Virus record (IMG/VR): IMGVR_UViG_2859810971_000008
Coordinates: 1-35,162 of that record
Source: a virus
Lineage: Duplodnaviria > Heunggongvirae > Uroviricota > Caudoviricetes
Strand: one strand, 5' to 3'
DNA: 35,162 bases
In this document: one piece after another, positions 1-35,162 of the stretch
Numbering within the stretch: the stretch's first letter is position 1
How the letters are laid out: each line of letters begins with the position of its first letter
Translations under genes and position numbers: made by a program
The notes under the pieces: generated by a model
Database searches by the model: none
The model's input: the letters and a program-made list of their open reading frames with translations, nothing else
What the model was told of the DNA's origin: nothing

Positions 1-1158
1 ATGCTCACCGTTAAGCAGATTGAAGCAGCAAAGCCGAAAGAAAAACCATACCGCCTTCTCGATGGTAATGGCCTGTACCTTTATGTCCCTGTATCAGGGA
101 AAAAGGTATGGCAGCTTCGCTACAAGATTGACGGTAAGGAAAAAATACTGACCGTAGGAAAATATCCACTAATGACTTTGCAGGAGACAAGAGATAAAGC
201 ATGGACCGCGAGGAAAGACATCTCGGTTGGCATCGATCCGGTAAAGGCGAAAAAGGCTTCGTCTAACAACAATTCCTTTAGTGCGATTTACAAGGAATGG
301 TACGAGCACAAGAAGCAAGTATGGTCAGTAGGGTATGCGACTGAACTTGCAAAAATGTTTGATGACGACATTTTACCTATCATCGGCGGCCTTGAAATTC
401 AGGATATTGAGCCGATGCAACTGCTGGAAGTAATCCGCAGATTTGAAGATCGCGGTGCAATGGAGCGAGCCAACAAAGCACGCAGAAGATGCGGAGAGGT
501 TTTCCGTTACGCTATTGTCACCGGAAGGGCTAAATATAACCCGGCACCTGACCTTGCTGACGCCATGAAGGGATACCGCAAGAAGAACTTCCCGTTTCTT
601 CCTGCAGACCAGATCCCGGCATTCAACAAAGCACTGGCAACATTTTCAGGAAGTATCGTATCGCTCATTGCGACCAAAGTTTTACGCTACACAGCCCTAA
701 GAACGAAAGAGCTTCGTTCCATGCAATGGAAGAACGTCGATTTTGAAAACAGGATTATCACTATCGACGCCAGTGTGATGAAGGGACGCAAGATTCATGT
801 TGTCCCGATGTCGGACCAGGTGGTTGAACTTCTCACTACGCTAATCTCCATCACCAAACCAGTATCAGAGTTTGTTTTTGCCGGGCGTAACGATAAGAAG
901 AAGCCAATCTGCGAGAACGCGGTATTGCTTGTGATCAAACAAATCGGCTATGAGGGTCTGGAAAGCGGTCACGGATTCAGGCATGAATTCAGCACGATTA
1001 TGAACGAGCACGAATGGCCCGCTGATGCTATTGAAGTGCAACTGGCACATGCCAACGGCGGATCTGTGCGCGGTATTTACAACCATGCTCAGTATCTCGA
1101 TAAGCGCAGAGAAATGATGCAGTGGTGGGCGGATTGGCTTGATGAAAAGGTGCTGTAA
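1..1158 (+). CDS. intS: Tyrosine recombinase/integrase, P4 (IntS)-type
   Basis: 385 aa ORF starting at nt 1; N-terminus MLTVKQIEAAKPKEKPYRLLDGNGLYLYV typical of P4-family integrases, C-terminal catalytic region with conserved R..H..R..Y spacing (HGFRHEF...VRGIYNHAQY). Recalled as near-identical to KplE1/CPS-53 IntS, unverified. Confidence 0.9.
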   Translation: MLTVKQIEAAKPKEKPYRLLDGNGLYLYVPVSGKKVWQLRYKIDGKEKILTVGKYPLMTLQETRDKAWTARKDISVGIDPVKAKKASSNNNSFSAIYKEWYEHKKQVWSVGYATELAKMFDDDILPIIGGLEIQDIEPMQLLEVIRRFEDRGAMERANKARRRCGEVFRYAIVTGRAKYNPAPDLADAMKGYRKKNFPFLPADQIPAFNKALATFSGSIVSLIATKVLRYTALRTKELRSMQWKNVDFENRIITIDASVMKGRKIHVVPMSDQVVELLTTLISITKPVSEFVFAGRNDKKKPICENAVLLVIKQIGYEGLESGHGFRHEFSTIMNEHEWPADAIEVQLAHANGGSVRGIYNHAQYLDKRREMMQWWADWLDEKVL

Positions 1159-2704: not shown

Positions 2705-2729
2705 GTGCCGGATACCCCGGCACTTTTTA
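2705..2729 (+). terminator. Rho-independent terminator after the first AT3 gene
   Basis: GTGCCGG-ATACC-CCGGCAC hairpin followed by TTTTT immediately after the stop at 2688-2690. Confidence 0.5.
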
Positions 2730-4102
2730 ATCAATTTCGTAAGTGACAGTGATTATCACCTCTGCATTATTACCCAAAACATTTTGATATATATTCATAT
2801 TACCTGATAATGTAGTTGCTCCAGTAAGAGTTATATAACTACTATTTGCATCAACCCTTGGAAGTAAAGCGGTAACTGCTGTTGTTAAATTATTATAGTA
2901 GCCTGTACTTCCAACATATGCAGCTTTATTGCTTGATACATATGGTAACCCTCCAATTCTGAAACCATCTCCTGACCCAATTAAAGTTATACCAAGGTGA
3001 CATATTGCTGTTATGATATTGCCACTCCTGACATAATTTCCTTTCTGCTGATAATATGTGGCATTACCACCTACAGTCGGAATCCAAACTCCAGTTTCTA
3101 TATCACCACATGACCAGTCTTCTGCTGTTGTTAGTTTTCCAGTAACAATAAATTTACTTCCACCACCAGAATTATAAGGAACAAAAATTGGATTTATTCT
3201 TGCATAAGTGTTACCGGTCTGCTCATTAAGATCATTTCTATCAATAAGAACTTGACCATTTTCGAAGTTTGAAATCTGGCAGTCTGTTACACTCCAGTCT
3301 CTTAACTTCACATCAGCATCCATGACACCAATAAGCTTACCAGCATTACCAATTTTTTCTTTATGCATATTTACATACACATTTCTTACCGTAACAGACT
3401 GAGGGAACAGATAATTAGCAGGATTAGTTTTATCACTTAAAATAGATATTACCCAAGGTCTGTATTGAGTACTTACTTCACAATAAAATCCATCAATAAG
3501 CGTTCCAGATGCCGCTGGTCCAAGTAGTATTCCACCTGTAGAGTGATGCGCACTACCTCCAATTACTCTCCCCTTAACGCAGTTAATATAGGCAAAATAT
3601 CCTAAATCTTGATTGTCATAGGCTGACATAGCACAGTCTCTAACTGTTACTCGAGAATTTCCTCCGTCATAAGCTGAGCCATCAGTTTTCTTACCAACTA
3701 TTGATATAAAGTTACCAATAGCAACTCGACTATAAAAAGTTTTTTATAACACCCCTCAATTAAAATATCCCAGTTTTCAAACTGAGCATATATATCATAA
3801 GAGCTGGCATTCCCATAATCTATGAAATCACAACATCTTATTTTCGGCGTATAAACGGCACTTTTTATCTTTATACCACCTAATGCTCTCTCCCCACCTG
3901 TGAATCTAATGCCAGTAACGGTGTAATCGCCTTGATAGAAATTATCTGCGGTAGGATTATTTTCGTCAGAATCATCACCCAATATAATAGCAAATTCACT
4001 CCCTGAATAATTAATTGTCGCCCCCTTATTTGAATATATAGTTACAGGTCTTATAAACTCCAAAGAATTACTTATTAGATACTCTCCATAAGGAAAAAAA
4101 TC
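2727..4102 (-). pseudogene. Tailspike/tail-fibre-like receptor-binding protein remnant (beta-helix-like composition), frameshifted and lacking a start codon
   Basis: Two ORF fragments (3698..4063 and 2727..3629) in different frames; the lower frame stays open upstream to 3743, so the break is in the A/T run at 3735-3746. The upper fragment has only a TTG start and is open upstream to a stop at 4103-4105. Gly/Asn/Thr/Ser-rich repetitive sequence typical of tailspike beta-helices. AT-rich. Confidence 0.4.
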
Positions 4103-4455
4103 TCAACTGGTGGTGAGTACTTTGGTCTGGAGTTTACGTAATTCATAATATTGATTACACCAACATCATAGATAATCGCCACCTTCTGGCGAGGAGCTCC
4201 TGATGCAATTAATCGCCAGGCCTACGCCCATTATTCAGGGGTAAATTTTGGACGGAGCCCCCAATTCCATCCTCAATTCTCCCTCGCACTGAGGAGTAGT
4301 AAGTGCAATTATTTAAAAAATCGCAAACAGAATATTATCATTTATTCTTGCATTCTGTTAATTAAAACCACACATAAAAACGTTGATACTTGATAAGTAA
4401 GTAGAGTATTATTAATGGTTTTAATAACGAACCTTTTAATCATGAGAAGCCTCAA

Positions 4456-5481
4456 ATGACTAGTACCAATAACATAACAAGAAAAAAAATGGATGGAGTA
4501 ACAATCTTAAGATTTATAGCTGCTTTTTATGTGTTTATTTTTCACATTAACATGAGAGTCCCCGTTAATTTTGGAGAGCTTATTAATAAAACCATTAGCA
4601 ATGGCGTCATTGGCATGAGTATTTTCTTCATGCTTTCTGGTTTTGTTTTGACTTATAATTACTATGGTTCCTTGTCAAACAATTACTTCAGGAAGCGAAT
4701 AGCAAGAATATTTCCAGCCTATTTATTTTGTGGGCTTTTAACCCTCCCATTTTTGTTATCCAGCGATGCAAGCTTTTTAAAAATGATTGCAAGCATATTC
4801 TTGTTTGTTACTGGAATGCAATCATGGATTTATCAGACCTTCGATTTTTGGAATTTTAGCGGTACCTGGTCAATATCAGTGGAATTGTTTTTTTATGCCC
4901 TGTTTCCATTTTTGATAAAAAACATCAACAAAAACAATGTAATTTACGTTTTACTTTTTTCATATTTATCTTCAGCATTATTAATCCCATTATCTGATAT
5001 AATTCAGGGACCTGTAGTTTGGTCCGTATATTACGCAACTCCAATATACAGGTTACCAGAATTTGTGGTGGGCGTCTGTATCGCAATACTTTTTTTAAAT
5101 GGCTATCGTGTTAACCATTATACATGGCTATTAAGCATTTTATTATTTCTGTATGCTACCACCCAGCAAAACAATAACTCCATGGGGGTGAACTATCTCA
5201 CAATTCCTGCGATATCAATTATGTTATTGCACCTGGCAAAAATCAACATCAAAAACAATATTGCAAACAGAGCGATCATTTACTTTGGAGATATAAGTTA
5301 TTCGTTTTATTTGATGCAATTACCTATATTATATTACCTGGATCATAATAAAAACTCATTTATTCTTAACTATGGTCTTTTTAGCTGGCTTGTACTTTTT
5401 GTTATTAATACTGCAATGGCATCATTATCTTATCACTTTCTGGAGAAGAACGATAAAATCAGAAAAATAATCACATCCTGA
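4456..5481 (+). CDS. Acyltransferase family 3 (AT3) integral membrane protein; putative O-antigen O-acetyltransferase (Oac-like)
   Basis: 341 aa; motifs RFIAAFYVFIFH, FFMLSGFVLTY, multiple TM segments; size and motifs resemble phage-borne Oac-type O-acetylases; AT-rich. Confidence 0.8.
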   Translation: MTSTNNITRKKMDGVTILRFIAAFYVFIFHINMRVPVNFGELINKTISNGVIGMSIFFMLSGFVLTYNYYGSLSNNYFRKRIARIFPAYLFCGLLTLPFLLSSDASFLKMIASIFLFVTGMQSWIYQTFDFWNFSGTWSISVELFFYALFPFLIKNINKNNVIYVLLFSYLSSALLIPLSDIIQGPVVWSVYYATPIYRLPEFVVGVCIAILFLNGYRVNHYTWLLSILLFLYATTQQNNNSMGVNYLTIPAISIMLLHLAKINIKNNIANRAIIYFGDISYSFYLMQLPILYYLDHNKNSFILNYGLFSWLVLFVINTAMASLSYHFLEKNDKIRKIITS

Positions 5482-5482
5482 T

Positions 5483-5508
5483 TTATTAGGGGGACCTCCC
5501 CCTAATAA
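5483..5508. terminator. Perfect inverted-repeat hairpin between convergent genes (possible bidirectional terminator)
   Basis: TTATTAGGGGG-ACC-TCCCCCTAATAA: 11-bp perfect stem between the AT3 stop (5481) and the tfa stop (5523). No clear U-tract on either side. Confidence 0.35.
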
Positions 5509-5522
5509 TACACCACATAATT

Positions 5523-5933
5523 TCAACGTATTATCTCTGGTCTTTCAGGCCAGGTTATTTCTGGCACTAAAGATAAATCCACTGACATTAAACTATTAAC
5601 ATATTCCTTCCATAATAAAAGATTGCCCTTGTTATTTTCACTTATAATACCGAGTAACAAATCTGACTGCCAGTTCATAATTAAACTATTAGCACTATCC
5701 AGCAGACACTGTCTTTCATTCTCTGCCTCACGAAGTAATTCATCATGTGTTTTTGGCGGCTGCGTAGGTGACGAAAGCTTTCCCTTATCATAGAACCAAC
5801 CAATTCTTACATTATCGGATACAGGTATAACTAACGCATTAGTTGGTTGCCAGGCACTCTCACCATCCCATACAGCAATATTGGTAACAACACCATTTTC
5901 AATAACGGCATAGTTCATCATGCATACTCCCAA
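5523..5933 (-). CDS. Tail fibre assembly protein (Tfa family)
   Basis: 136 aa; N-terminus [19 protein letters not shown]... characteristic of lambda/Mu-type tail fibre assembly chaperones; directly downstream of the tail fibre gene. Confidence 0.8.
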   Translation of the reverse strand: MGVCMMNYAVIENGVVTNIAVWDGESAWQPTNALVIPVSDNVRIGWFYDKGKLSSPTQPPKTHDELLREAENERQCLLDSANSLIMNWQSDLLLGIISENNKGNLLLWKEYVNSLMSVDLSLVPEITWPERPEIIR

Positions 5934-6933
5934 ATGATTGCAATACCAGCCATTCCGCTACCTCCGGCACGCTGCTGCGTCGCTCCACCGTAAACACAGG
6001 CGCCACCGCCGCCGCCGCCATGGCCATTAGCATTAATACCTTCGCCTACAATGGCTTGCGACCCAGCCCCCGCACCAAGGATTGAATCGCCTCCAGGCCC
6101 ACCAATCGCCAGACTGCCAGAAAACCGAATGCCTGGTGAGTTATAACCACTTCCGGATCCGATAATATTGGCACCTGTAAATCCCGGTTCAGTATATGCC
6201 CCATACGGACCAACAACCCCAGGAGCAGTGCCTTCAGCAAGAACATTCCCACCAAGACCACCTTTGGCAATTATGGTATTGCCGAAAGAGGTTGCTCCCC
6301 CGGGAGCACCAACCGACGCACTTGCACCAGTGCCACCATATCCTATTGTCACAGTAGTTACGGTTGGATTATCCACGCGAGCTTTAACATACTCCCCGGA
6401 CATCCCCCGCCACCACAAGCAGCATTATTGGGATAACCGACCTGACAACCACCACCGGCCCCACCACCACCAACAATTTCAACAATAATAAATCTTGTGC
6501 CTTTTGTCGGAGTGTATGTACCTGAGCTTTTAAACACCTGACACTGTATAAGCCTCCCGGAGCCATCTCCCAAACCAAGATTTTCGAGAGCCGTTTTCAC
6601 CGTGCCGTCCGATTTAATATCACCAAACGGATTCTTGCGGCTCAGGTATTCAACAGCAAACCCCGATCCCAGCAATTCAACAAAACCGGGCAGATCACCA
6701 TTATCAAGCACATCCCGTTGCGTTTTATCACTTACAAACTGGGCCAGAGCTGCAGCAATAAAGCTGGCCTGCCGAATAACCTTATTGACTTGCGCACTGG
6801 AGGCTTTCCCTGCTGTAAATCCGGATAAAAGCGCGGGCAACGCTTCCCATTCCTCCTGCGATATAACATTGGCATTTCGATCCGTTGCAAACGCTTTAAA
6901 GTCATTTTTCGCCATCAGAGTAATACTCCCCAT
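5918..6933 (-). CDS. Tail fibre protein, glycine-rich; interrupted by a 1-nt frameshift (two ORF fragments 6358..6933 and 5918..6418)
   Basis: N-terminal fragment [33 protein letters not shown]... is a conserved tail-fibre N-terminus; the C-terminal fragment is Gly-rich. The frames join if the 5-C run at about 6404-6408 were 6 nt. Confidence 0.7.
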
Positions 6934-7595
6934 GCTCCTACATCAAAACCACTGATGAATTCGTTATCCATATCAAAACCAAAAAATTTTGAGCCTTCCG
7001 ATGGGGTTTCCACCGAAGGTGTTTCAATGCCACCCGCCCATACCCCGGCAGCTTTTACTGTGAGATACCCCTGTTTAATTGCCGCAATTAACTCACGCGA
7101 TACATCTGAAATATCAGTATCAGGAAAGACCCAGACCGATATCGTCATGTCCTGGTTATCGACTATCTGCATTCGCAGCCCGGATCCTGCTGTTGCAGCG
7201 TCAAGAATTGCCGGAAGCGAATCATTCCGTCCATCCCAGTTATTAATCGCAATCTTCGCTTTAAGAATGACACGATAAGTTTCATCGCTGAGGTACATGT
7301 ATCCGGAATCAGGATCGTATGGTCCCTGCCATACCCCCTGATCATATCCAAGCCCGTCGGTATCCCAGCTGAAATAGACACCTGAGATAGGCTGGCTGAC
7401 AACACGGCTACGTCCGATCCACAATCCCAGAATGTCAAGTTGCACACCAACCGCAGAGTCAATATCAAATGCAGTAATCAGCCCTCTGGTGGCAGCCGCA
7501 ACATCAATAAGCGGCCGGGTCATCAGATCAACATGCGCAAGAAATTTAGGTTTGGTGGCGTGGTAGTTCGTGATTAGTTCGGTGTATTTGCTCAT
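6915..7595 (-). CDS. Tail/baseplate protein (P2 gpI / Mu gp48-like, DUF2313-type)
   Basis: 226 aa ORF between baseplate J and the tail fibre gene, the conserved position of gpI/gp48-like proteins. Family assignment by position and recalled sequence character. Confidence 0.55.
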
Positions 7596-7605
7596 GACTC
7601 CACCG

Positions 7606-8790
7606 TTATAACGATATTTTCCGGGGTACAGGACGCAGATTCGTTGTATCTGATATCAATGTTTGATGACGACAAAGCCCCGGGGATTTCCCAATCGTCA
7701 GTTCCTGAATATCGTAATAGCGTGCATTCCCGCCACTCACCACGCCAAGATTCGCCGGTGAGTAAATGCGACTTAAAAGGACCGAATCACCAATCGTCAA
7801 ACTATTGATATAGTCGGAAATAGCCTGCTGGATCTGCTGCCCTATCTGTGAGGTATAACCCGTAAAAACTTTTAATTTAATCCGGGCATAAACAGGCACA
7901 TCACTGGAACGCGAGAATTTGATTACATGGGGATTGCCGTATTTATCCGGAACCGTAACGGATGTTGTACCGTGAGTGGCTGTCCCCTGGCCTTTATTCC
8001 CTCTGATAGCCTGAGCAATATCCGTCACATCACCGCCATCCACAATTACAGCAACAGAGTGTGGCGGTAACCCGTTACCGTCCTCCGAACCAGTATCGTT
8101 TTCATAGAGTTTGTGGCGGGTTACACCGGTAACATTAGAAACAGCACCATCCAGTGCTTCAAATGGGGTTATTGATGGCAACGCAACACTTTGCGACTGG
8201 CGGATACGTAACTCAGCATCAGTTTCTGCCGGAGAGCCAACAGTAGCCGCAGCAGGATTAGTTACCGAAACCCAGCCACGGGTTGGCGTATTAATTTCAG
8301 TGATAGTTCCAGCCAGCGCCGCCACTGCACCACTGACGGAACATGTTGCGGTCGCCATCACTGTACCATCCACGCCGACCACCACTGAAGCAGGCAAACG
8401 CCATATCACATTATTACTGTCTTTCACGCTGCCATTAATGATGGTTGTTCCGGCAGTTCCTGTAAGAAGCAAATCAACCGTAGAGTTCGTCGCGCCTTTA
8501 CGTGAAATACCATTTATTTTCACGTTACTGGTCAGTGCAGCCCCATAGCCGGTTGCCGGTGAAAAACAGTTGTAGACAGTTATCGCCATATTATTGGCAT
8601 CATGAATCGCCAGCGCCATCAGAGCCACCATCTGGCCGTCTTTGCTGTCCGGTTCGAGGTAGGCATCACTGCCATAAATCTGCTGAAAATAGCTAATCAG
8701 GGTGCTGAGTATCGTCTGATAATCAGGCGCACTGATCCCCTCCGCGGTTACCTTTGCAGATAAACCGAGAGAATCAAGGTTCAGAGCCAT
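7606..8790 (-). CDS. Baseplate J-like protein (P2 gpJ / Mu gp47 family)
   Basis: 394 aa; position between the gp46/W-like and gpI-like genes; size and sequence character typical of baseplate J proteins. Confidence 0.8.
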   Translation of the reverse strand: MALNLDSLGLSAKVTAEGISAPDYQTILSTLISYFQQIYGSDAYLEPDSKDGQMVALMALAIHDANNMAITVYNCFSPATGYGAALTSNVKINGISRKGATNSTVDLLLTGTAGTTIINGSVKDSNNVIWRLPASVVVGVDGTVMATATCSVSGAVAALAGTITEINTPTRGWVSVTNPAAATVGSPAETDAELRIRQSQSVALPSITPFEALDGAVSNVTGVTRHKLYENDTGSEDGNGLPPHSVAVIVDGGDVTDIAQAIRGNKGQGTATHGTTSVTVPDKYGNPHVIKFSRSSDVPVYARIKLKVFTGYTSQIGQQIQQAISDYINSLTIGDSVLLSRIYSPANLGVVSGGNARYYDIQELTIGKSPGLCRHQTLISDTTNLRPVPRKISL

Positions 8791-9143
8791 TACGCCTCCG
8801 ATGTAACAGTCGTTATTCCATAGAGAGTGTCGATTTCAGCGGAAAACATGACACGTCGGGTCGTGGTATCCACCGTCGTATTGAAAGAGAGGATTGATTT
8901 AACGCCCTGCGTTTCGAGGATGCGCTTACGGATCGCCAGGTTGTAAGTTTCTGGTTTTTGCCTGCCCAGCACGGACTGGATCCACGGTGTTCCCTCTGTG
9001 GTATCAAGAAACCATTGCCCATACCACAATTCGAATCGCGTTTTCACAGCCTGCGCCACGGCCTCAGGCGAGTTAATCAGCCAGGTGTCATCACCGCTGC
9101 CAAAGGTGTAATCGCCATCGGCGTCTTCACGTCTGTATCGCAT
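8790..9143 (-). CDS. Baseplate wedge protein (GP46 / gpW-like)
   Basis: 117 aa ORF immediately upstream of baseplate J with overlapping stop/start, the standard gpW/gp46 slot. Confidence 0.6.
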   Translation of the reverse strand: MRYRREDADGDYTFGSGDDTWLINSPEAVAQAVKTRFELWYGQWFLDTTEGTPWIQSVLGRQKPETYNLAIRKRILETQGVKSILSFNTTVDTTTRRVMFSAEIDTLYGITTVTSEA

Positions 9144-9894
9144 CAGTTTACCCCGTCGGTACTGCTTCCACCACGCTGAACACCACCATGAGTGTGTGTA
9201 TCATCGATTGGCTTGCCATTAGCCTTCACGCTCCCCAAAAACTCAACAGCACCAGTGATTTTTGAAGCCACACCAGAAACCACAGACCCCACCATGCCCC
9301 CCATCCAGGTTAACAGGCCATGAATGGTTACTTTCTCAGAAAAATCAGCCAGAGGGGCAACCACATCAAGCCCCCGGGAGCAACAATTTTAATTTTCCTG
9401 GTATCAGGATTAAGCTCAAAATAGGTGCTGCCGTCATCACTACGCAACTGTGTGGCACTGGTATTAATACCGCTAATCTTCCTTGCCTGCGACTGGGGAC
9501 CGACAATACAAAACGCATCCGATAAATCATGCATTCTGTCATCGACCGGCTCCTGTATCCCGCCACTCTGCCACCAGAAATCAATACAACGATCGGCAAA
9601 AATCACCAAACATTCATCACCGGCTTTTACCGGAAAAGTCAACGTGCAGCCTCCGCCGCGCGGGAATACCACTGGCACATCCACCAGCAATGGGTAATTT
9701 TTGGTAATGCGGTTGCCGTCGTTATCAATTTCAACGTAACGGATAGCAGGCTGTACAACCGCCGTCACCGCATCAGGAGCGAATGACTGAACAATGCCAG
9801 GCAAGGCGACACGGATCTGGTTCTTTGTTGTTTCCCGTTCAGATTTGAATGTTTCAGCAAGGTCGCCGCTGCGGGTCTGGTCAGATACTGCCAT
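9143..9894 (-). CDS. Baseplate assembly/spike protein V (Mu gp45-like); interrupted by a 1-nt frameshift (fragments 9328..9894 and 9143..9364)
   Basis: 188 aa N-terminal fragment plus 73 aa C-terminal fragment in another frame; the frames join (…KIVAPGGLDVVAPLADFSEK…) if the 5-C run at about 9371-9375 were 6 nt. GGAG Shine-Dalgarno ahead of the ATG at 9894. Confidence 0.6.
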
Positions 9895-9912
9895 TTAGTA
9901 GGCTCCAGAAAG

Positions 9913-9936
9913 CAAAAAACCCGCCGGGTGGCGGGT
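9913..9936 (-). terminator. Rho-independent terminator after the moron gene
   Basis: Minus-strand ACCCGCC-ACCC-GGCGGGT hairpin followed by TTTTTTGCTTT, 18 nt after the stop of the 79-aa gene. Confidence 0.6.
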
Positions 9937-9953
9937 TCATTATTGAAGTTTCA

Positions 9954-30834: not shown

Positions 30835-31294
30835 GTTTCACTCCTGCTTTGGCTAGTCTGTAAACACCAACAAGGCGCTCTGCGAACGCCCTGTTATTTG
30901 CTGCGGCTACCACTAATCCCTCAGGTGAATCAGGGTGTCGAATCTCTTCTTTTTCCTGGTATTTCTTACGACGTTTTGGCATAATTACTCCTGTGGATTG
31001 ATCCAGTCTTTCTACATCAGGCCTCGAAGAATTCGCCGTTCTTCGGGCTTTTTCTTTTGTCAGCATTCTGGCTACTTGCTTAGCCAGTTCCGCCAACTCC
31101 TCGTCTTCAACACCCCATTCAAGAACAGCCAGAAGCATTCCCATTTTTGGGATGAAGCTGTCTTTCCATCGCGAAATTTGCGATTCATTAATCCCTAACG
31201 CGTCGGCAACCTTTCGCTGACCACGTACAGCAATTCGATTCAGGATGTTGCTTGTAATTGCATTCGCTTTCTTGCGAGTACTTGTAAGTTGCAT
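30821..31294 (-). CDS. cII: CII-like transcriptional activator
   Basis: Contains ...GINESQISRWKDSFIPKMGMLLAVLEWGV..., resembling lambda CII (…SQISRWKRDWIPKFSMLLAVLEWGV…). Start chosen at the ATG at 31292-31294 (MQLTS) behind AAGGAAA. Confidence 0.65.
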   Translation of the reverse strand: MQLTSTRKKANAITSNILNRIAVRGQRKVADALGINESQISRWKDSFIPKMGMLLAVLEWGVEDEELAELAKQVARMLTKEKARRTANSSRPDVERLDQSTGVIMPKRRKKYQEKEEIRHPDSPEGLVVAAANNRAFAERLVGVYRLAKAGVKHGRR

Positions 31295-31363
31295 ATGTAA
31301 GTATTTCCTTAGATAACAATTGATTGAATGTATGCAAATAAATGCATACACCATAGGTGTGGC

Positions 31364-31395
31364 TTAATTTGATGCCCTTTTTCAGGGCTGGGATG
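31364..31395 (-). promoter_or_regulatory. nutR (boxA + boxB) N-utilisation site
   Basis: Minus strand CGCTCTTACA (boxA) followed by GCCCTGAAAAAGGGC (boxB hairpin) between cro and cII, as in lambda nutR. Confidence 0.7.
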
Positions 31396-31413
31396 TGTAA
31401 GAGCGGGAATGTC

Positions 31414-31629
31414 TTAAGCGGCTTTGTGTTCCGGCGGGAACACGTCATCAAGACTGACTTTTGCGCCTAACTTGTTTAGGCACTCAACAAGAGCACGGCA
31501 TGTTTTAAGGTCTGGGAAGCGACGACCAGATTCCCAATGTCCGATAGCTCCCTGTGTGCATCCAACTGCCTTAGCAAGTGTTGTTTGAGAGATATTCAGT
31601 GACTCTCGATATTTTCGTAGTTTGCTCAT
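31414..31629 (-). CDS. cro: Cro-like HTH repressor (XRE family)
   Basis: 71 aa from the ATG at 31627-31629 (MSKLRKYRESLNISQTTLAKAVGCTQGAIGHWESG...) preceded by GGAGGG; divergent from cI. Confidence 0.6.
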   Translation of the reverse strand: MSKLRKYRESLNISQTTLAKAVGCTQGAIGHWESGRRFPDLKTCRALVECLNKLGAKVSLDDVFPPEHKAA

Positions 31630-31649
31630 ATGCCCTCCATAGTAACCAT

Positions 31650-31732
31650 GAAACAATAATACGATATGTACTTTTAGAATGCAAACAAAAAAATACATCT
31701 TGTGCATGGATGGTTTTAGTACAGAGCGTAAT
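31650..31732. promoter_or_regulatory. Right operator region: pR (-35 TTGCAT at 31679-31684, -10 TATTAT at 31656-31661, minus strand) with two operator-like dyads
   Basis: Dyads AATACGATATGTACT (31658-31672) and AGTACAGAGCGTAAT (31718-31732) share half-sites with the pL dyad; 17-nt spacer between the -35 and -10. Confidence 0.5.
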
Positions 31733-31741
31733 AATAAGGGT

Positions 31742-32401
31742 ATGAAAATGAAATGGTATGAACTGGCTAGATCCAGAATGAAAGAGCTCGGCATAACTCA
31801 AGAGAAGTTAGCTGAAGAGCTTGGTATGACGCAGGGTGGAATTGGTCACTGGTTGCGCGGATCTCGTCATCCATCTCTTGACGAGATTGGTGTGGTGTTT
31901 AAATACCTTGGTATTGATAACGTCTCATTCAACCACGACGGTACATTTTCACCTGTTGGCGAATACTCATCTGCCCCCGTTAAAAAACAATATGAGTACC
32001 CTGTTTTTTCTCATGTTCAGGCCGGGATGTTCTCGCCTGAGCTTAGAACCTTTACCAAAGGTGATGCGGAGAGATGGGTCAGCACAACCAAAAAAGCCAG
32101 TGATTGTGCGTTCTGGCTTGAAGTTGAAGGTAATTCCATGACCGCGCCAACAGGATCCAAGCCAAGCTTTCCTGACGGGATGTTAATTCTCGTTGACCCT
32201 GAGCAGGCTGTTGAGCTAGGTGATTTCTGCATAGCCAGACTTGGTGGTGACGAGTTTACCTTCAAGAAACTGATCAGGGATAGCGGTCAGGTGTTCCTAC
32301 AGCCACTAAACCCGCAATATCCAATGATTCCATGCAATGATAGCTGTTCCGTAGTAGGGAAAGTTATCGCCAGCCAGTGGCCTGAAGAGACATTTAGTTA
32401 A
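31742..32401 (+). CDS. cI: CI repressor (LexA-like S24 peptidase C-terminal domain); hybrid with a lambda-like C-terminus
   Basis: C-terminal ~100 aa (…[93 protein letters not shown]) match the lambda CI C-terminal domain from memory; the N-terminal HTH domain differs. Start at MKMKWYEL, since the track's upstream ATG lies in pR. Confidence 0.9.
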
Positions 32402-32433
32402 CAGCCTCACAACTCTAAAACACACAACAATAA

Positions 32434-32461
32434 CCCGACCTTAGCGTCGGGTTTTCTTTTT
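32434..32461 (+). terminator. Rho-independent terminator after cI
   Basis: CCCGAC-CTTAGC-GTCGGG hairpin followed by TTTTCTTTTT; no rex genes between cI and pL. Confidence 0.7.
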
Positions 32462-32526
32462 CCAAAATATAAACCCATTAAATACAAAGCGTTATAAAAA
32501 ACTAATTATATTTAGAACATTTTGTA

Positions 32527-32562
32527 TTGACTCGATAAAGTACAAATCGTACTATTTAGCCA
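32527..32562 (+). promoter_or_regulatory. pL promoter with overlapping operator dyad
   Basis: -35 TTGACT (32527-32532), 17-nt spacer, -10 TACTAT (32550-32555); the transcript would begin near ATCAGCAGG as in lambda pL; dyad AGTACAAATCGTACT at 32539-32553 overlaps the -10. Confidence 0.6.
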
Positions 32563-32593
32563 TCAGCAGGACGTGCTAACCACCATGAAGGTG

Positions 32594-32625
32594 ACGCTCT
32601 TAAAAATTAAGCCCTGAAGAAGGGC
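32594..32625 (+). promoter_or_regulatory. nutL (boxA CGCTCTTAA + boxB GCCCTGAAGAAGGGC)
   Basis: Exact lambda-like boxA at 32594-32602 and boxB hairpin at 32611-32625, downstream of pL and upstream of N. Confidence 0.8.
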
Positions 32626-32783
32626 AGCATTCAAAGCAGAAGGCTTTGGTGTGTGTGATACGAAACGAAGCATTGGCCGGAAGTGCGAATCCGGATTAGC
32701 TGCCAATGTGCCATTGCGAGGTGTTTTCGTTCAGGACTACGACTCCCACACACAACCAAAGCTAACTGACAGGAGAATCCAGA

Positions 32784-32878
32784 TGAATGCACAAACACGC
32801 CGCCGCGAACGTCGCGCAGAGAAACAGGCTCAATGGAAAGCAGCAAATCCCCTGTTGGTTGGGGTAAACGCAAAATGA
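32784..32878 (+). pseudogene. N: Antiterminator N, truncated after codon 31 by the IS600-like insertion
   Basis: MNAQTRRRERRAEKQAQWKAANPLLVGVNAK matches the lambda N arginine-rich boxB-binding N-terminus as recalled; reading frame stops at the TGA of the IS terminal TGAGGTG. Confidence 0.8.
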
Positions 32879-32918
32879 GGTGTACTGGCAATAGCGGACA
32901 CTACCATTTGTTCTTTTT

Positions 32919-33737
32919 TTAAGCAGCCATCTGATGATATTTTTCCCTGAAGGCTGCCGGGGAGATATTCCCCAGACGAGAGTGACGACGCTGACGATTG
33001 TAGAAAATCTCAATGTATTCCCGTATTACTGAGATGGCCTCATCCCGGCTCTTAAAACGATAGTGGCTCAGGCTTTCATTTTTCAGCGTTCCCCAGAAGC
33101 TTTCCATCGGAGCGTTGTCGTAACAGTTACCTTTACGCGACATTGATGTTTTCAGACCAAACTGCTCCTGTATGACCCGGTAATCGTATGCGCAGTACTG
33201 TGAACCTCGATCAGAGTGGTGGATTAGCCCGGCAGGTGGGCGCTGGCTCCTGAGCGCCATAAACAGGGCTTTACCTGTCAGCTCTTTTGTCATGCGCTCT
33301 CCCATGGCGTAGCCGACAATTTCGCACGTATAAACATCTTTGATGCCAGCGAGGTACAACCATCCCTCCTGTGTGGCAACATACGTCAGGTCCGCCACCC
33401 AGACCTGATTTGGTGCTGTAGGAGCGAACGTCTGGTTCAGCAGATTTGGCGCAACTGGCAGATTGTGGTTCGGGTTCGTAGTCGCTCTGAACTTGCGTTT
33501 CTGCTTACAGCGTAGCCTCAGCTCCTTACGAAGACGTGCCAGTCGGTCACGACCAACGATGATGCCATTCTCTGCCAGCTCCGTCTGGAGCCGCCGGGTT
33601 CCATATGTTTCGCGAGTGCGGATATGTGCCACCTTAATCTCCAGTTTTAGCCGCTCATCACTTTGTTTTCTGTCTGAGGGTTCATGCTGTACCCAGTTGT
33701 AATAACCGCTCCTGGATACACCAAATACCTGACACAT
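32919..33737 (-). CDS. IS600-like transposase OrfB
   Basis: 272 aa IS3-family DDE transposase (…HSDRGSQYCAYDYR…YDNAPMESFWGTLK…). Confidence 0.8.
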   Translation of the reverse strand: MCQVFGVSRSGYYNWVQHEPSDRKQSDERLKLEIKVAHIRTRETYGTRRLQTELAENGIIVGRDRLARLRKELRLRCKQKRKFRATTNPNHNLPVAPNLLNQTFAPTAPNQVWVADLTYVATQEGWLYLAGIKDVYTCEIVGYAMGERMTKELTGKALFMALRSQRPPAGLIHHSDRGSQYCAYDYRVIQEQFGLKTSMSRKGNCYDNAPMESFWGTLKNESLSHYRFKSRDEAISVIREYIEIFYNRQRRHSRLGNISPAAFREKYHQMAA

Positions 33738-33772
33738 CGCTTCAATGGGAAATTGTTGTCGCCATTGTTCGA

Positions 33773-34075
33773 TTAACGCGTATTTTTCAGCGACTCCTGT
33801 GCAAAATACGCTGTTGCTTTTTTTAATATATCGCGCTCAAGGCGAGCTTCATTTAACGCCTTACGCAGTTGCAGAATTTCAGATTCCAGTTCAGCCACCG
33901 TGCGGGAACCAGGAGTACCGAGCCCTTTTCTGGCGGCGGTAACCCATTGTCCTAAAGTGCCTTCAGGAAGGGATAATCGGGAAGCGCCTTCACTGATCGA
34001 AAGTTGATTTTCAAGAACCGTTCTGACAGCTTCGGCTTTGAACTCTTTAGAGTAACGTTGGGTTTTTCTGCTCAT
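33773..34075 (-). CDS. IS600-like transposase OrfA
   Basis: 100 aa; MSRKTQRYSKEFKAEAVRTVLENQLSISEGASRLSLPEGTLGQWV... HTH plus leucine zipper typical of IS3 OrfA. Confidence 0.8.
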   Translation of the reverse strand: MSRKTQRYSKEFKAEAVRTVLENQLSISEGASRLSLPEGTLGQWVTAARKGLGTPGSRTVAELESEILQLRKALNEARLERDILKKATAYFAQESLKNTR

Positions 34076-34186
34076 TATTAGCTCCTTCTGATGCCATTCT
34101 ATTTCAGGAAGGAGTGTCCGTTAAACTCAGGCTACCTCAGTGCACCCGCCATCGATATCAGCATGGGTAGACAGAAAGATGAGAGA

Positions 34187-34277
34187 GCCGGCGCAAGCCG
34201 GTTTTTTATTTGAATTCACCGACGCCGCTTAATGCGGATTTCTTTTATCTGAACTCGCTACGGCGAGTTTTGTTTTA
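34187..34277 (+). terminator. Three tandem terminator-like hairpins
   Basis: CCGGC-GCAA-GCCGG + TTTTTTATTT (34188-34210); GCCGC-TTAAT-GCGG + ATTTCTTTTA; CTCGC-TACG-GCGAG + TTTTGTTTTA. Confidence 0.5.
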
Positions 34278-34289
34278 TGGAGATGATAA

Positions 34290-34457
34290 ATGCACTTCCG
34301 AGTAACAGGTGAATGGAATGGAGAACCATTCAACAGAGTTATCGAAGCAGAGGACATCAACGACTGCTATAACCACTGGATGATATGGGCGCAGATAGCG
34401 CATGCAGACGTAACCAATATTCGAATTGAAGAACTGAAAGAACACCAAACCGCCTGA
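34290..34457 (+). CDS. Hypothetical small protein (55 aa), unknown function
   Basis: Below the ORF-track cutoff; ATG at 34290 preceded by GGAGATGA; translation MHFRVTGEWNGEPFNRVIEAEDINDCYNHWMIWAQIAHADVTNIRIEELKEHQTA; stop sits within a terminator hairpin. Confidence 0.4.
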   Translation: MHFRVTGEWNGEPFNRVIEAEDINDCYNHWMIWAQIAHADVTNIRIEELKEHQTA

Positions 34458-34470
34458 TGGCGGTTTTTTA
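34450..34470 (+). terminator. Rho-independent terminator
   Basis: CCGCC-TGAT-GGCGG followed by TTTTTTATT. Confidence 0.6.
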
Positions 34471-34483
34471 TTGGAGACAAGAA

Positions 34484-34827
34484 ATGTCAGATTTGGCTAT
34501 GAAGATTTTGAAATGGCAATCGACTGGCGATGTCGGCATCAGTAGCGCAACTCTTGCCTCAATCGCATGTGGACTGAAAAAGAATATCTATGGTCATCAC
34601 TTCGGCGCTCCCCATGACGAGCAGACTTCCGGCGATGCGTTGCACTTGTTGAGCAGATTCCAGAAATCAGAGATTCATTCGACAAGGTTGCAAAGCGCGT
34701 TCCGGCATTCAAAGGCATCCTCAACGAATGGGATTCTCTCGTTGCTCTGTTGAAGTCTGAAATGAAGATACACGGAAACAAAGCACCAGAGACTTACAGA
34801 AGAATCAGCGAGCTACGCAAGGACTAA
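34484..34827 (+). CDS. Hypothetical protein, apparently frameshifted (about 113 aa if repaired)
   Basis: ATG at 34484 behind GGAGACAA; frame 1 decays into R/S-rich sequence while the +2 frame encodes protein-like sequence (…IRDSFDKVAKRVPAFKGILNEWDSLVALLKSEMKIHGNKAPETYRRISELRKD) to a TAA at 34825-34827. Break lies between about 34617 and 34680. Confidence 0.35.
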
Positions 34828-34961: not shown

Positions 34962-35162
34962 ATGCAACACGAACTACAGCCTGATTCACTGGTTGATTTG
35001 AAATTCATCATGGCCGATACTGGCTTCGGTAAAACCTTCATCTATGCTCGGATTAAGTCCGGAGACCTTCCAAAAGCCAAAGTTATCCACGGGCGAGCAA
35101 GATGGTTATATCGTGACCATTGTGAATTCAAAAATAAGCTCTTAAGCCGCGCCAATGGGTAA
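34962..35162 (+). CDS. torI: Excisionase / recombination directionality factor, TorI (AlpA/Xis-like winged helix)
   Basis: 66 aa; MQHELQPDSLVDLKFIMADTGFGKTFIYARIKSGDLPKAKVIHGRARWLYRDH... recalled as essentially the E. coli K-12 KplE1 TorI sequence, unverified. Stop is the last codon of the window. Confidence 0.75.
   Translation: MQHELQPDSLVDLKFIMADTGFGKTFIYARIKSGDLPKAKVIHGRARWLYRDHCEFKNKLLSRANG

Follow-up and report, generated by a model that had tools for sequence, protein, structure and literature searches.

Is a prophage whose genes are broken one after another by the loss of a single base a decaying element, or does the pattern originate in the sequencing? The question is posed by IMG/VR record IMGVR_UViG_2859810971_000008, a 35,162-nucleotide (nt) stretch of Caudoviricetes DNA (hereafter the window, meaning the whole of it) that exact protein look-up located in the Shigella chromosome CP026810.1 (assembly GCA_002949455.1, 4,531,304 bp; hereafter the source) and that spans a complete prophage from intS to torI. 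A sequence-only reading had held that the frame disruptions all map to short homopolymers and are each repaired by one extra base, which would leave the prophage far more intact than it looks if they were sequencing errors, or make it a multiply inactivated cryptic prophage if they were real. Our analysis makes it highly probable that most of these one-base "frameshifts" are G/C-run deletion errors of an unpolished long-read assembly, beneath which lie a few real lesions in an ordinary cryptic prophage degraded by insertion sequences (IS). What looks like a systematic pattern stems chiefly from the consensus caller, not from the organism.

We aligned the window base by base, and by tblastn, with ten intact annotated relatives and found seven genes that were each one base short; in every case a single-base insertion restored an open reading frame (ORF) of reference length (Table 1); the repaired lengths of 445, 332, 399, 250, 406 and 244 amino acids (aa) were exactly those of the references. 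All of the relatives encode the affected proteins in one single frame. Two further one-base losses were found in intergenic hairpins, at 2710-2711 and 18842-18845, and in the part of the window that is comparable with close relatives the window-specific net indels were deletions without exception. One base was missing at each such site, mostly from a short run, as had been proposed, but the proposed list of five sites was neither complete nor uniform. It missed the lesions in the baseplate J gene (7678) and the DUF2213 head protein gene (21510), as well as the in-frame TGA of the small terminase gene (TerS), and the word "all" fails because this TGA (25608-25610) is a substitution and because IS911 and IS600 truncate or delete genes outright.

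The E. coli references showed the lesions to be derived, but by themselves they could not separate recent mutation from error, for which Illumina contigs of the same clone were needed. As the core of our test, we looked up the truncated products and their one-base-repaired versions exactly in a public protein collection and then retrieved the encoding DNA. By this route the 300-aa C-terminal fragment of the tailspike-like gene, which carries two lineage-specific substitutions, was found to be encoded only in the source and in contig 195 assembled from Illumina run ERR200328. This run holds the Illumina data (80x) of the reference strain of S. boydii prov. E1621-54, the proposed S. boydii 22 (PMC8795385, supplementary file 3). 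Three ERR200328 contigs overlapped the source over 12,540, 3,706 and 3,735 b, amounting to 19,981 b, with no substitution and four one-base gaps, each of which was a base absent from a G/C run of the source (2710, G3 to G2; 6404, C6 to C5; 7678, C5 to C4; 9371, C6 to C5). Since ERR200328 also carries the three substitutions that separate the source from other Shigella relatives (3004, 3443 and 5494), it represents the same clone, and from the absence of single-nucleotide polymorphisms (SNPs) in 20 kb we infer that ERR200328 and CP026810.1 come from the same strain. The substitution at 5494 changes G to A at the end of a G6 run; the run is part of a hairpin (GGGGGG-CC-TCCCCC) that lies downstream of the second acyltransferase gene. 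This substitution is itself real, because ERR200328 has it too.

Run statistics against the Illumina contigs revealed a marked base specificity. Among runs of five or more bases, 3 of 14 G/C runs were shortened in the source versus 0 of 70 A/T runs (Fisher p=0.004). The shortened runs comprised two of the three G/C6 runs and one of the 11 G/C5 runs, while all 51 G/C4 runs were unchanged, and none of the approximately 190 A/T runs of four or more bases was shortened, including eight runs of seven or more. At 2710, 6404, 7678 and 9371 the discrepancy vanished in the same-clone short-read data, and four of the four verified differences were one-base losses in G/C runs. The losses at these four positions are assembly artefacts.

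Retrieval of the individual alleles gave the same result at each site. The terminator stem at 2710 reads G3 in the ERR200328 contig (L018) and in four other Shigella assemblies. For the tail fibre gene, the six-base run was present in L018 and in all five independent Shigella assemblies of the locus (L013-L016 and L035), and the repaired 332-aa product exactly matched a Shigella protein found on 15 contigs, whereas the truncated product occurred on one contig, that of the source. The baseplate J run was C5 in 10 of 10 E. coli references and in L013, L014 and L018; its truncated 394-aa product was recorded only from NCBI and only from the source contig, and the repaired 399-aa product was identical to a protein on 414 contigs. 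Likewise, the gpV run was C6 in L018, L013 and L014, the C-repaired spike protein was identical to a protein on 165 contigs, the truncated one was on the source contig only, and a variant repaired with G was absent from the protein collection. The C5 runs of the tail fibre and gpV genes had rightly been suspected of being homopolymer undercalls. Wherever they covered the genes, L013-L016, L035 and ERR200328 encoded intact gpV (250 aa), baseplate J (399 aa) and fibre (332 or 338 aa). The repaired proteins matched known proteins over their full length, and thus no change had accumulated downstream of any lesion. A 161-aa tail-fibre fragment in other S. flexneri assemblies was considered as proof that the C5 is real and was rejected; the contig concerned (L035) starts 29 b upstream and has the full six-base run.

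In contrast to these sites, three small lesions were carried by the Illumina contigs as well and are therefore real. At the tailspike-like gene, T6 at 3740 was found in ERR200328 (L018) and in every Shigella assembly of the locus (L013-L016); the sequence collection has the 121-aa N-terminal fragment on 46 contigs, with 84 blocks indexed for it, and does not contain the repaired 445-aa sequence. A real T6 fits the observation that A/T runs are not error-prone in the CP026810.1 assembly. The small early gene at the right end has lost a C that is present in two references (L030 and L031), the site is not a homopolymer, and the 89-aa truncated product recurred in an ERR200328 contig (L033) that matches the source at 100% identity along 3,735 b. 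The nonsense codon of the small terminase gene lies in an ERR200328 contig (L021) that is 100% identical to window positions 23580-27285, TGA included, where relatives have Arg (CGA), and the product with Arg restored was identical to a protein on 215 contigs. Adding one base does restore the tailspike-like gene, as the sequence-only reading had stated, and the small gene, for which it had named this as a possibility, but neither loss is a sequencing error. Its error explanation accordingly holds for the G/C-run lesions and fails at two of its five sites: on the independent platform the runs were longer than in the source at the tail fibre and gpV genes, and the sequence was as given in the source at the tailspike-like and small genes.

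We also observed that in many S. flexneri assemblies (P0081, Logan; P0054, 76 aa, 118 contigs) unrelated sequence, possibly a mobile element, breaks into the small terminase after approximately residue 107; this is a separate, independent inactivation in a sister lineage.

Larger losses are associated with the two insertion sequences. On one side of IS911 only the last 226 nt of the antiterminator gene Q remain, without the N-terminal 293 nt (the gene has 519 nt in L036, a 99.6%-identical E. coli relative), and on the other side lies a 212-aa fragment of an O-like replication protein that is truncated at its C terminus. The window lacks ninB through ninH as well as rusA, and it has no gene for a helicase or a loader; the IS911-mediated deletion of the nin and replication-helicase region is real. 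IS600 has the CI-like repressor region on one side and the distal early-left genes on the other. A terminal inverted repeat of IS600 occupies 34113-34139, and an ERR200328 contig begins within it, at window position 34113, which is what short-read assembly should give at an IS present in several copies. Both insertion sequences retain their programmed -1 sites (A6G in IS911, A7 in IS600), and nowhere else in the window is there a natural two-frame arrangement. With the TerS TGA present in Illumina contig L021, an essential lytic function has been lost through an independently confirmed lesion. The virion structural module is nearly intact, and the prophage is dead all the same, because its small terminase, Q, replication and early functions are truly broken. 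The suggestion of a prophage much less damaged than it appears is thus borne out for the tail and head structural genes only, given the TerS nonsense codon and the Q, O, nin and early-left losses, and the element is indeed cryptic, but through the TerS, IS911 and IS600 lesions and not through the one-base sites that had been listed.

Table 1 Coordinates and state of the features discussed, in window positions
Feature (intact length)	Position	Strand	State in the window	Status
IntS-type tyrosine integrase	1-1158		assigned by Pfam	
Intergenic terminator hairpin stem	2710..2711		GG, against GGG in relatives	artefact
Tailspike-like gene (445 aa), no Pfam match	2727..4063	-	T7 to T6 at 3740-3745, giving 121 + 300 aa	real frameshift
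Glycine-rich tail fibre gene (332 aa)	5918..6915	-	C5 at 6404-6408, true length C6	artefact
Baseplate J/gp47 gene (399 aa)	7592..8790	-	C4 at 7678-7681, true length C5	artefact
gpV-like membrane-puncturing spike gene (250 aa)	9143..9894	-	C5 at 9371-9375, true length C6	artefact
Intergenic hairpin, major capsid gene / STY1053-family ORF	18842..18845		G4, against G5 in most references	
DUF2213 head protein gene (406 aa)	20320..21539	-	C4 at 21510-21513, against C5	probable artefact
Phage Mu F-like head morphogenesis gene, "gpF" (244 aa)	21554..22287	-	GGGG at 21943-21946; PF04233	probable artefact
Small terminase gene (184 aa)	25269..25823	-	in-frame TGA at 25608-25610 (CGA to TGA), giving 71 + 105 aa	real nonsense mutation
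IS911 (1,249 bp)	28950..30198	-	27-nt terminal inverted repeats, intact A6G frameshift site	
IS600 (1,264 bp)	32876..34139	-	between CI-like repressor region and distal early-left genes	
Small hypothetical gene (114 aa)	34484..34827	+	C lost between 34619 and 34620 (ACGCAG to ACGAG)	real frameshift
torI excisionase gene	34962-35162			

Three further one-base losses, at 18842, 21510 and 21943, lie in the head module, and they are of the G/C5-to-4 type that the assembly also shows at other positions. For the stretch from approximately 18,650 to 23,580, look-ups of the portal protein and of the 142-aa and 381-aa products returned the source or unrelated samples and no ERR200328 contig; the capsid protein occurs on at least 1000 contigs. 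The hairpin at 18842 differs between the references too, and, being non-coding, has no bearing on gene integrity. The run at 21510 was C5 in nine of nine references and in L020, L025 and L026, and among 141 IMG/VR matches C5 was found in 137 and C4 in none; the repaired 406-aa DUF2213 protein was identical to a protein on at least 1000 contigs. At 21943 the sequence was one base longer in nine of nine references, reading GGGGG in four and GGGGT in five, and of 86 on-target IMG/VR matches 47 had G5, 38 had GGGGT and one had G4; the repaired 244-aa head morphogenesis protein was identical to a protein on 24 contigs. The gene had been described as carrying a G4 undercall. It is one base short and probably so by error, but relative to five of the nine references the missing base is the T after GGGG and not the fifth G.

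The 142-aa fragment of this head morphogenesis gene was found elsewhere in two records only, CP026872.1 and the one encoding STF67183.1, both of which we take to be long-read-only; its presence in CP026872.1 was rejected as independent confirmation of the short allele, as that record belongs to the same accession batch and has the same error signature. Across the head stretch, 2-3 of about 10-11 G/C5 runs differed from the references, versus none of about 35 G/C4 runs and none of about 85 A/T runs. On these counts the lesion at 21943 is very likely an artefact, and that at 21510 is likely to be one.

In the neighbouring cement protein gene (19810-20316), codon 34 (20215-20217) specifies Lys (AAG) in the window and Asn in eight of the eight cluster members compared, and the exact 168-aa protein is on record for the source alone, with ERR200328 not among its carriers. 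Possible causes are a private substitution, an error in the consensus, or a gap in the assembly of the short reads.

The same signature extended beyond the window, into the 6 kb of host DNA that adjoins the integrase gene. In the host gene yihY/BrkB (L017, 16736-17607), approximately 3.4 kb beyond the left end of the window, a G4 run reduced to G3 splits the ORF into 108 and 174 aa in the source only, and four other Shigella assemblies, which here represent other strains and not ERR200328, encode 290 aa. This indicates that the artefact is genome-wide. CP026872.1 (L012), a record of the same accession batch as the source, holds a related prophage that has lost a single base at no fewer than six places, each in a G/C run (6452, 6837, 10381, 10814, 14645 and 18293), and the losses split portal, terminase small subunit, head, neck and tape-measure genes. 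A candidate match of its repaired DUF2213 protein to the common S. flexneri form failed owing to a 12-nt in-frame deletion, and that comparison was uninformative. Separately, E. coli RM8082 (L008, NZ_CP043825.1), a RefSeq reference, was seen to have G-run single-base deletions at 5352, 8993 and 13098, two of them in genes annotated as "frameshifted", and artefacts of this kind are probably present in some of the comparison genomes taken as "intact" too.

Kim and co-workers reportedly produced, in 2018, PacBio genomes of 59 historical Shigella strains. The accessions on both sides of CP026810.1 (CP026803/4, CP026811/12 and CP026832) belong to this batch of historical Shigella genomes, and CP026832 is explicitly described as a PacBio sequence of Kim et al., to whom the accession range CP0267xx-CP0268xx is attributed. 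From its place in this batch, CP026810.1 would be an unpolished PacBio-only assembly of the same set. In the passages of Yassine et al. (2022, PMC8795385) that deal with them, the closed PacBio Shigella genomes of Kim et al. are said never to have been corrected against short-read data and to contain numerous homopolymer indels. The account given in those passages agrees with ours in reporting single-base homopolymer deletions and false pseudogenes that are absent from same-clone short reads. As in that set, so far as it is described there, coding, non-coding and host DNA are all affected, and the accession falls inside the batch. Unlike in that account, the errors here were found in G/C runs only, with none among 70 A/T runs of five or more bases, a detail that the account does not state.

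Taken together, these results suggest the following sequence of causes. The presumed long-read consensus drops single bases in G/C homopolymers at a rate of about 1 per 5 kb (about 0.2 per kb of checked sequence), affecting roughly a fifth of G/C runs of five or more bases and no A/T run. The tail fibre, baseplate J and gpV genes acquire spurious frameshifts from these dropped bases, as probably do the DUF2213 and Mu F-like head genes, and non-coding hairpins and at least one host gene are likewise altered. Beneath this layer lie the real lesions, namely the T7-to-T6 change of the tailspike-like gene, the CGA-to-TGA change of TerS and the non-homopolymer loss in the small early gene, together with the IS911- and IS600-associated truncations and deletions that have removed Q, nin/replication and early-left functions. 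The allele states in the Illumina contigs, the G/C specificity and the IS junctions are direct observations.

Several points weigh against so broad an attribution to error. The three head-module sites all lie in the stretch that is without an ERR200328 contig, and their status as artefacts is extrapolated. An ENA metagenome scaffold (L029, approximately 2080-2097) that has no other indel relative to the references over 6.3 kb likewise carries C4 at 21510, and a real C4 allele at this site therefore exists somewhere. The window and CP026872.1 have the short alleles in common at both 21510 and 21943, which could reflect shared inheritance and not two errors that coincide; chance alone would give about one shared site, however, given that each assembly has 25-35% of its G/C5 runs collapsed. 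Finally, CP026810, GCA_002949455 and the strain name "54-1621" were not found named in the literature, the platform of CP026810.1 is deduced from its accession batch, and its identity in strain with ERR200328 is undocumented.

The first of the alternatives concerns 21510 alone. A sister scaffold from the same study as L029 (L028, 2749-2760) has a 45-nt deletion of this region, and L028, L029 and the window all encode the same 381-aa, N-terminally shortened DUF2213 protein. The C4 could on this basis be real here, as a recurrent natural switch to a shortened head protein translated from a downstream start, but this is improbable.

Less probable again is the explanation that every one-base lesion is real, having arisen by slippage in a decaying prophage, with the PacBio-sequenced strain having diverged from the Illumina-sequenced stock. 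Such divergence is hard to reconcile with zero substitutions against four indels over 19,981 b, with all four indels being G/C-run deletions while 70 A/T runs of five or more bases (eight of them of seven or more) are unaffected, and with the same type of lesion in a terminator stem and a conserved host gene. The repaired ORFs show no accumulated downstream amino-acid change, the truncated products are essentially confined to the source in a collection rich enough in Shigella to hold the real 121-aa fragment on 46 contigs, and the data set has been published, in the passages of PMC8795385 cited above, as bearing numerous homopolymer indels. What speaks for it is that real one-base lesions do exist here (T6 at 3740 and the loss at 34619), that the prophage is demonstrably decaying, with its TerS nonsense codon and IS insertions, and that C4 at 21510 is found in an independent metagenome scaffold. 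We retain assembly error as the source of most of the one-base losses.

A second possibility is that CP026810.1 is correct and the Illumina contigs mislead, either through a second, intact paralogous prophage or through smoothing by the assembler. The ERR200328 assembly does break at approximately 18,650 and 23,580, which suggests a second related head module in the genome, and related prophages do occur in Shigella (L012). However, contig ERR200328_195 runs unbroken from about 70 b inside the integrase gene through the locus-specific cargo (the acyltransferase genes and the T6 pseudogene) to the tail genes, and its zero substitutions and three lineage-specific SNPs assign it to this locus. 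As the independent same-locus assemblies L013, L014, L015, L016 and L035 also have the longer runs, we regard this explanation as very remote.

The idea that the G/C tracts are phase-variable contingency loci, or sites of programmed ribosomal or transcriptional slippage at which the genes are expressed despite the frameshift and tract length depends on the culture, can draw on the tail fibre gene (tail fibres being a class with known phase variation), on the second independent short allele at 21510 and on the true programmed -1 sites of IS911 (A6G) and IS600 (A7), but its probability is close to nil: the tracts have merely 5-6 bases and are scattered within genes and not near their 5' ends (one lies 30 codons from the stop), a non-coding terminator and a housekeeping-type host gene are among the sites, tract lengths are essentially invariant across 10-16 related prophages, 86-141 IMG/VR contigs and 4-5 Shigella assemblies, which is not the behaviour of a contingency locus, the two-frame arrangement is not conserved in relatives as a programmed frameshift would be, and no slippery heptamer or stimulatory structure turned up, although no search was aimed at either.

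The remainder of the prophage is built from recognisable parts. The myovirus structural module (5.9-25.5 kb) is alike from terminase to tail fibre to that of Escherichia phage vB_EcoM-611R5 (ON470588.1; 96.7% DNA identity) and of prophages in 248 complete E. coli genomes (approximately 98%), and more distantly to that of Salmonella phage SEN34. With the vB_EcoM-611R5 relatives it has the same gene order: TerL, DUF1073 portal, Mu F-like protein, DUF2213, cement protein and DUF2184 capsid, then DUF3383 sheath, tube, chaperone, tape measure, baseplate J, DUF2612 and fibre. At 14507-15153 (- strand) a tail assembly chaperone gene (150 aa) has a short DUF6889 ORF after it, which overlaps the start of the tape-measure gene; all relatives keep this arrangement, and the two could represent the frameshift pair typical of tail chaperones. 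The right arm is lambdoid, with holin, endolysin, Rz, KilA-N, CI/Cro/CII and O-like genes and with IS911 and IS600 inside it. Unlike the vB_EcoM-611R5 relatives, the window combines this module with an IS911/IS600-broken lambdoid early and lysis region, a TerS nonsense codon, and a cargo of two acyltransferase genes and the tailspike-like pseudogene. Its ends, an IntS-type integrase at one and the TorI excisionase at the other, resemble the intS/torI (KplE1/CPS-53-type) module of E. coli; unlike KplE1, its virion module is of the vB_EcoM-611R5 type and the element lies between yihU fragments and not at argW. Its IS3-family insertions tied to essential-gene deletions are like those of IS-degraded cryptic Shigella prophages.

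Beside the integrase gene, two Acyl_transf_3 genes (1545-2690 and 4456-5481, both + strand) stand on either side of the tailspike-like pseudogene; both have low G+C content (approximately 32-37%) and resemble O-antigen-modification cargo. The presumed host, S. boydii prov. E1621-54, is placed phylogenetically within S. flexneri cluster S3, and this cargo could bear on its distinct serotype. In the host flanks (L017, 13676-14161; L032, 6850-8052) a yihU-like gene of the yihQ-yihZ region has one piece on either side of the prophage, where intS adjoins a 161-aa NAD_binding_2 fragment and torI is followed by a 400-aa ORF with NAD_binding_11 and DeoC aldolase domains; the yihU-like flank arrangement was also found in an Illumina contig.

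The artefact is already documented for the data set to which we assign CP026810.1, and nothing about it is novel; the value of the finding is practical, not conceptual. Pseudogene counts, calls of prophage intactness and allele distances derived from CP026810.1 overcount frameshifts, and the overcount would extend to the whole PacBio Shigella reference set, in which about 1 per 5 kb, if extrapolated, would correspond to several hundred spurious frameshifts per genome. Exact look-up of truncated and repaired products, combined with same-clone short-read contigs, offers a cheap way of separating artefact from decay that does not require the reads. In the corrected picture, the prophage has a nearly intact virion module and is dead by way of its TerS, Q, replication and early-gene lesions.

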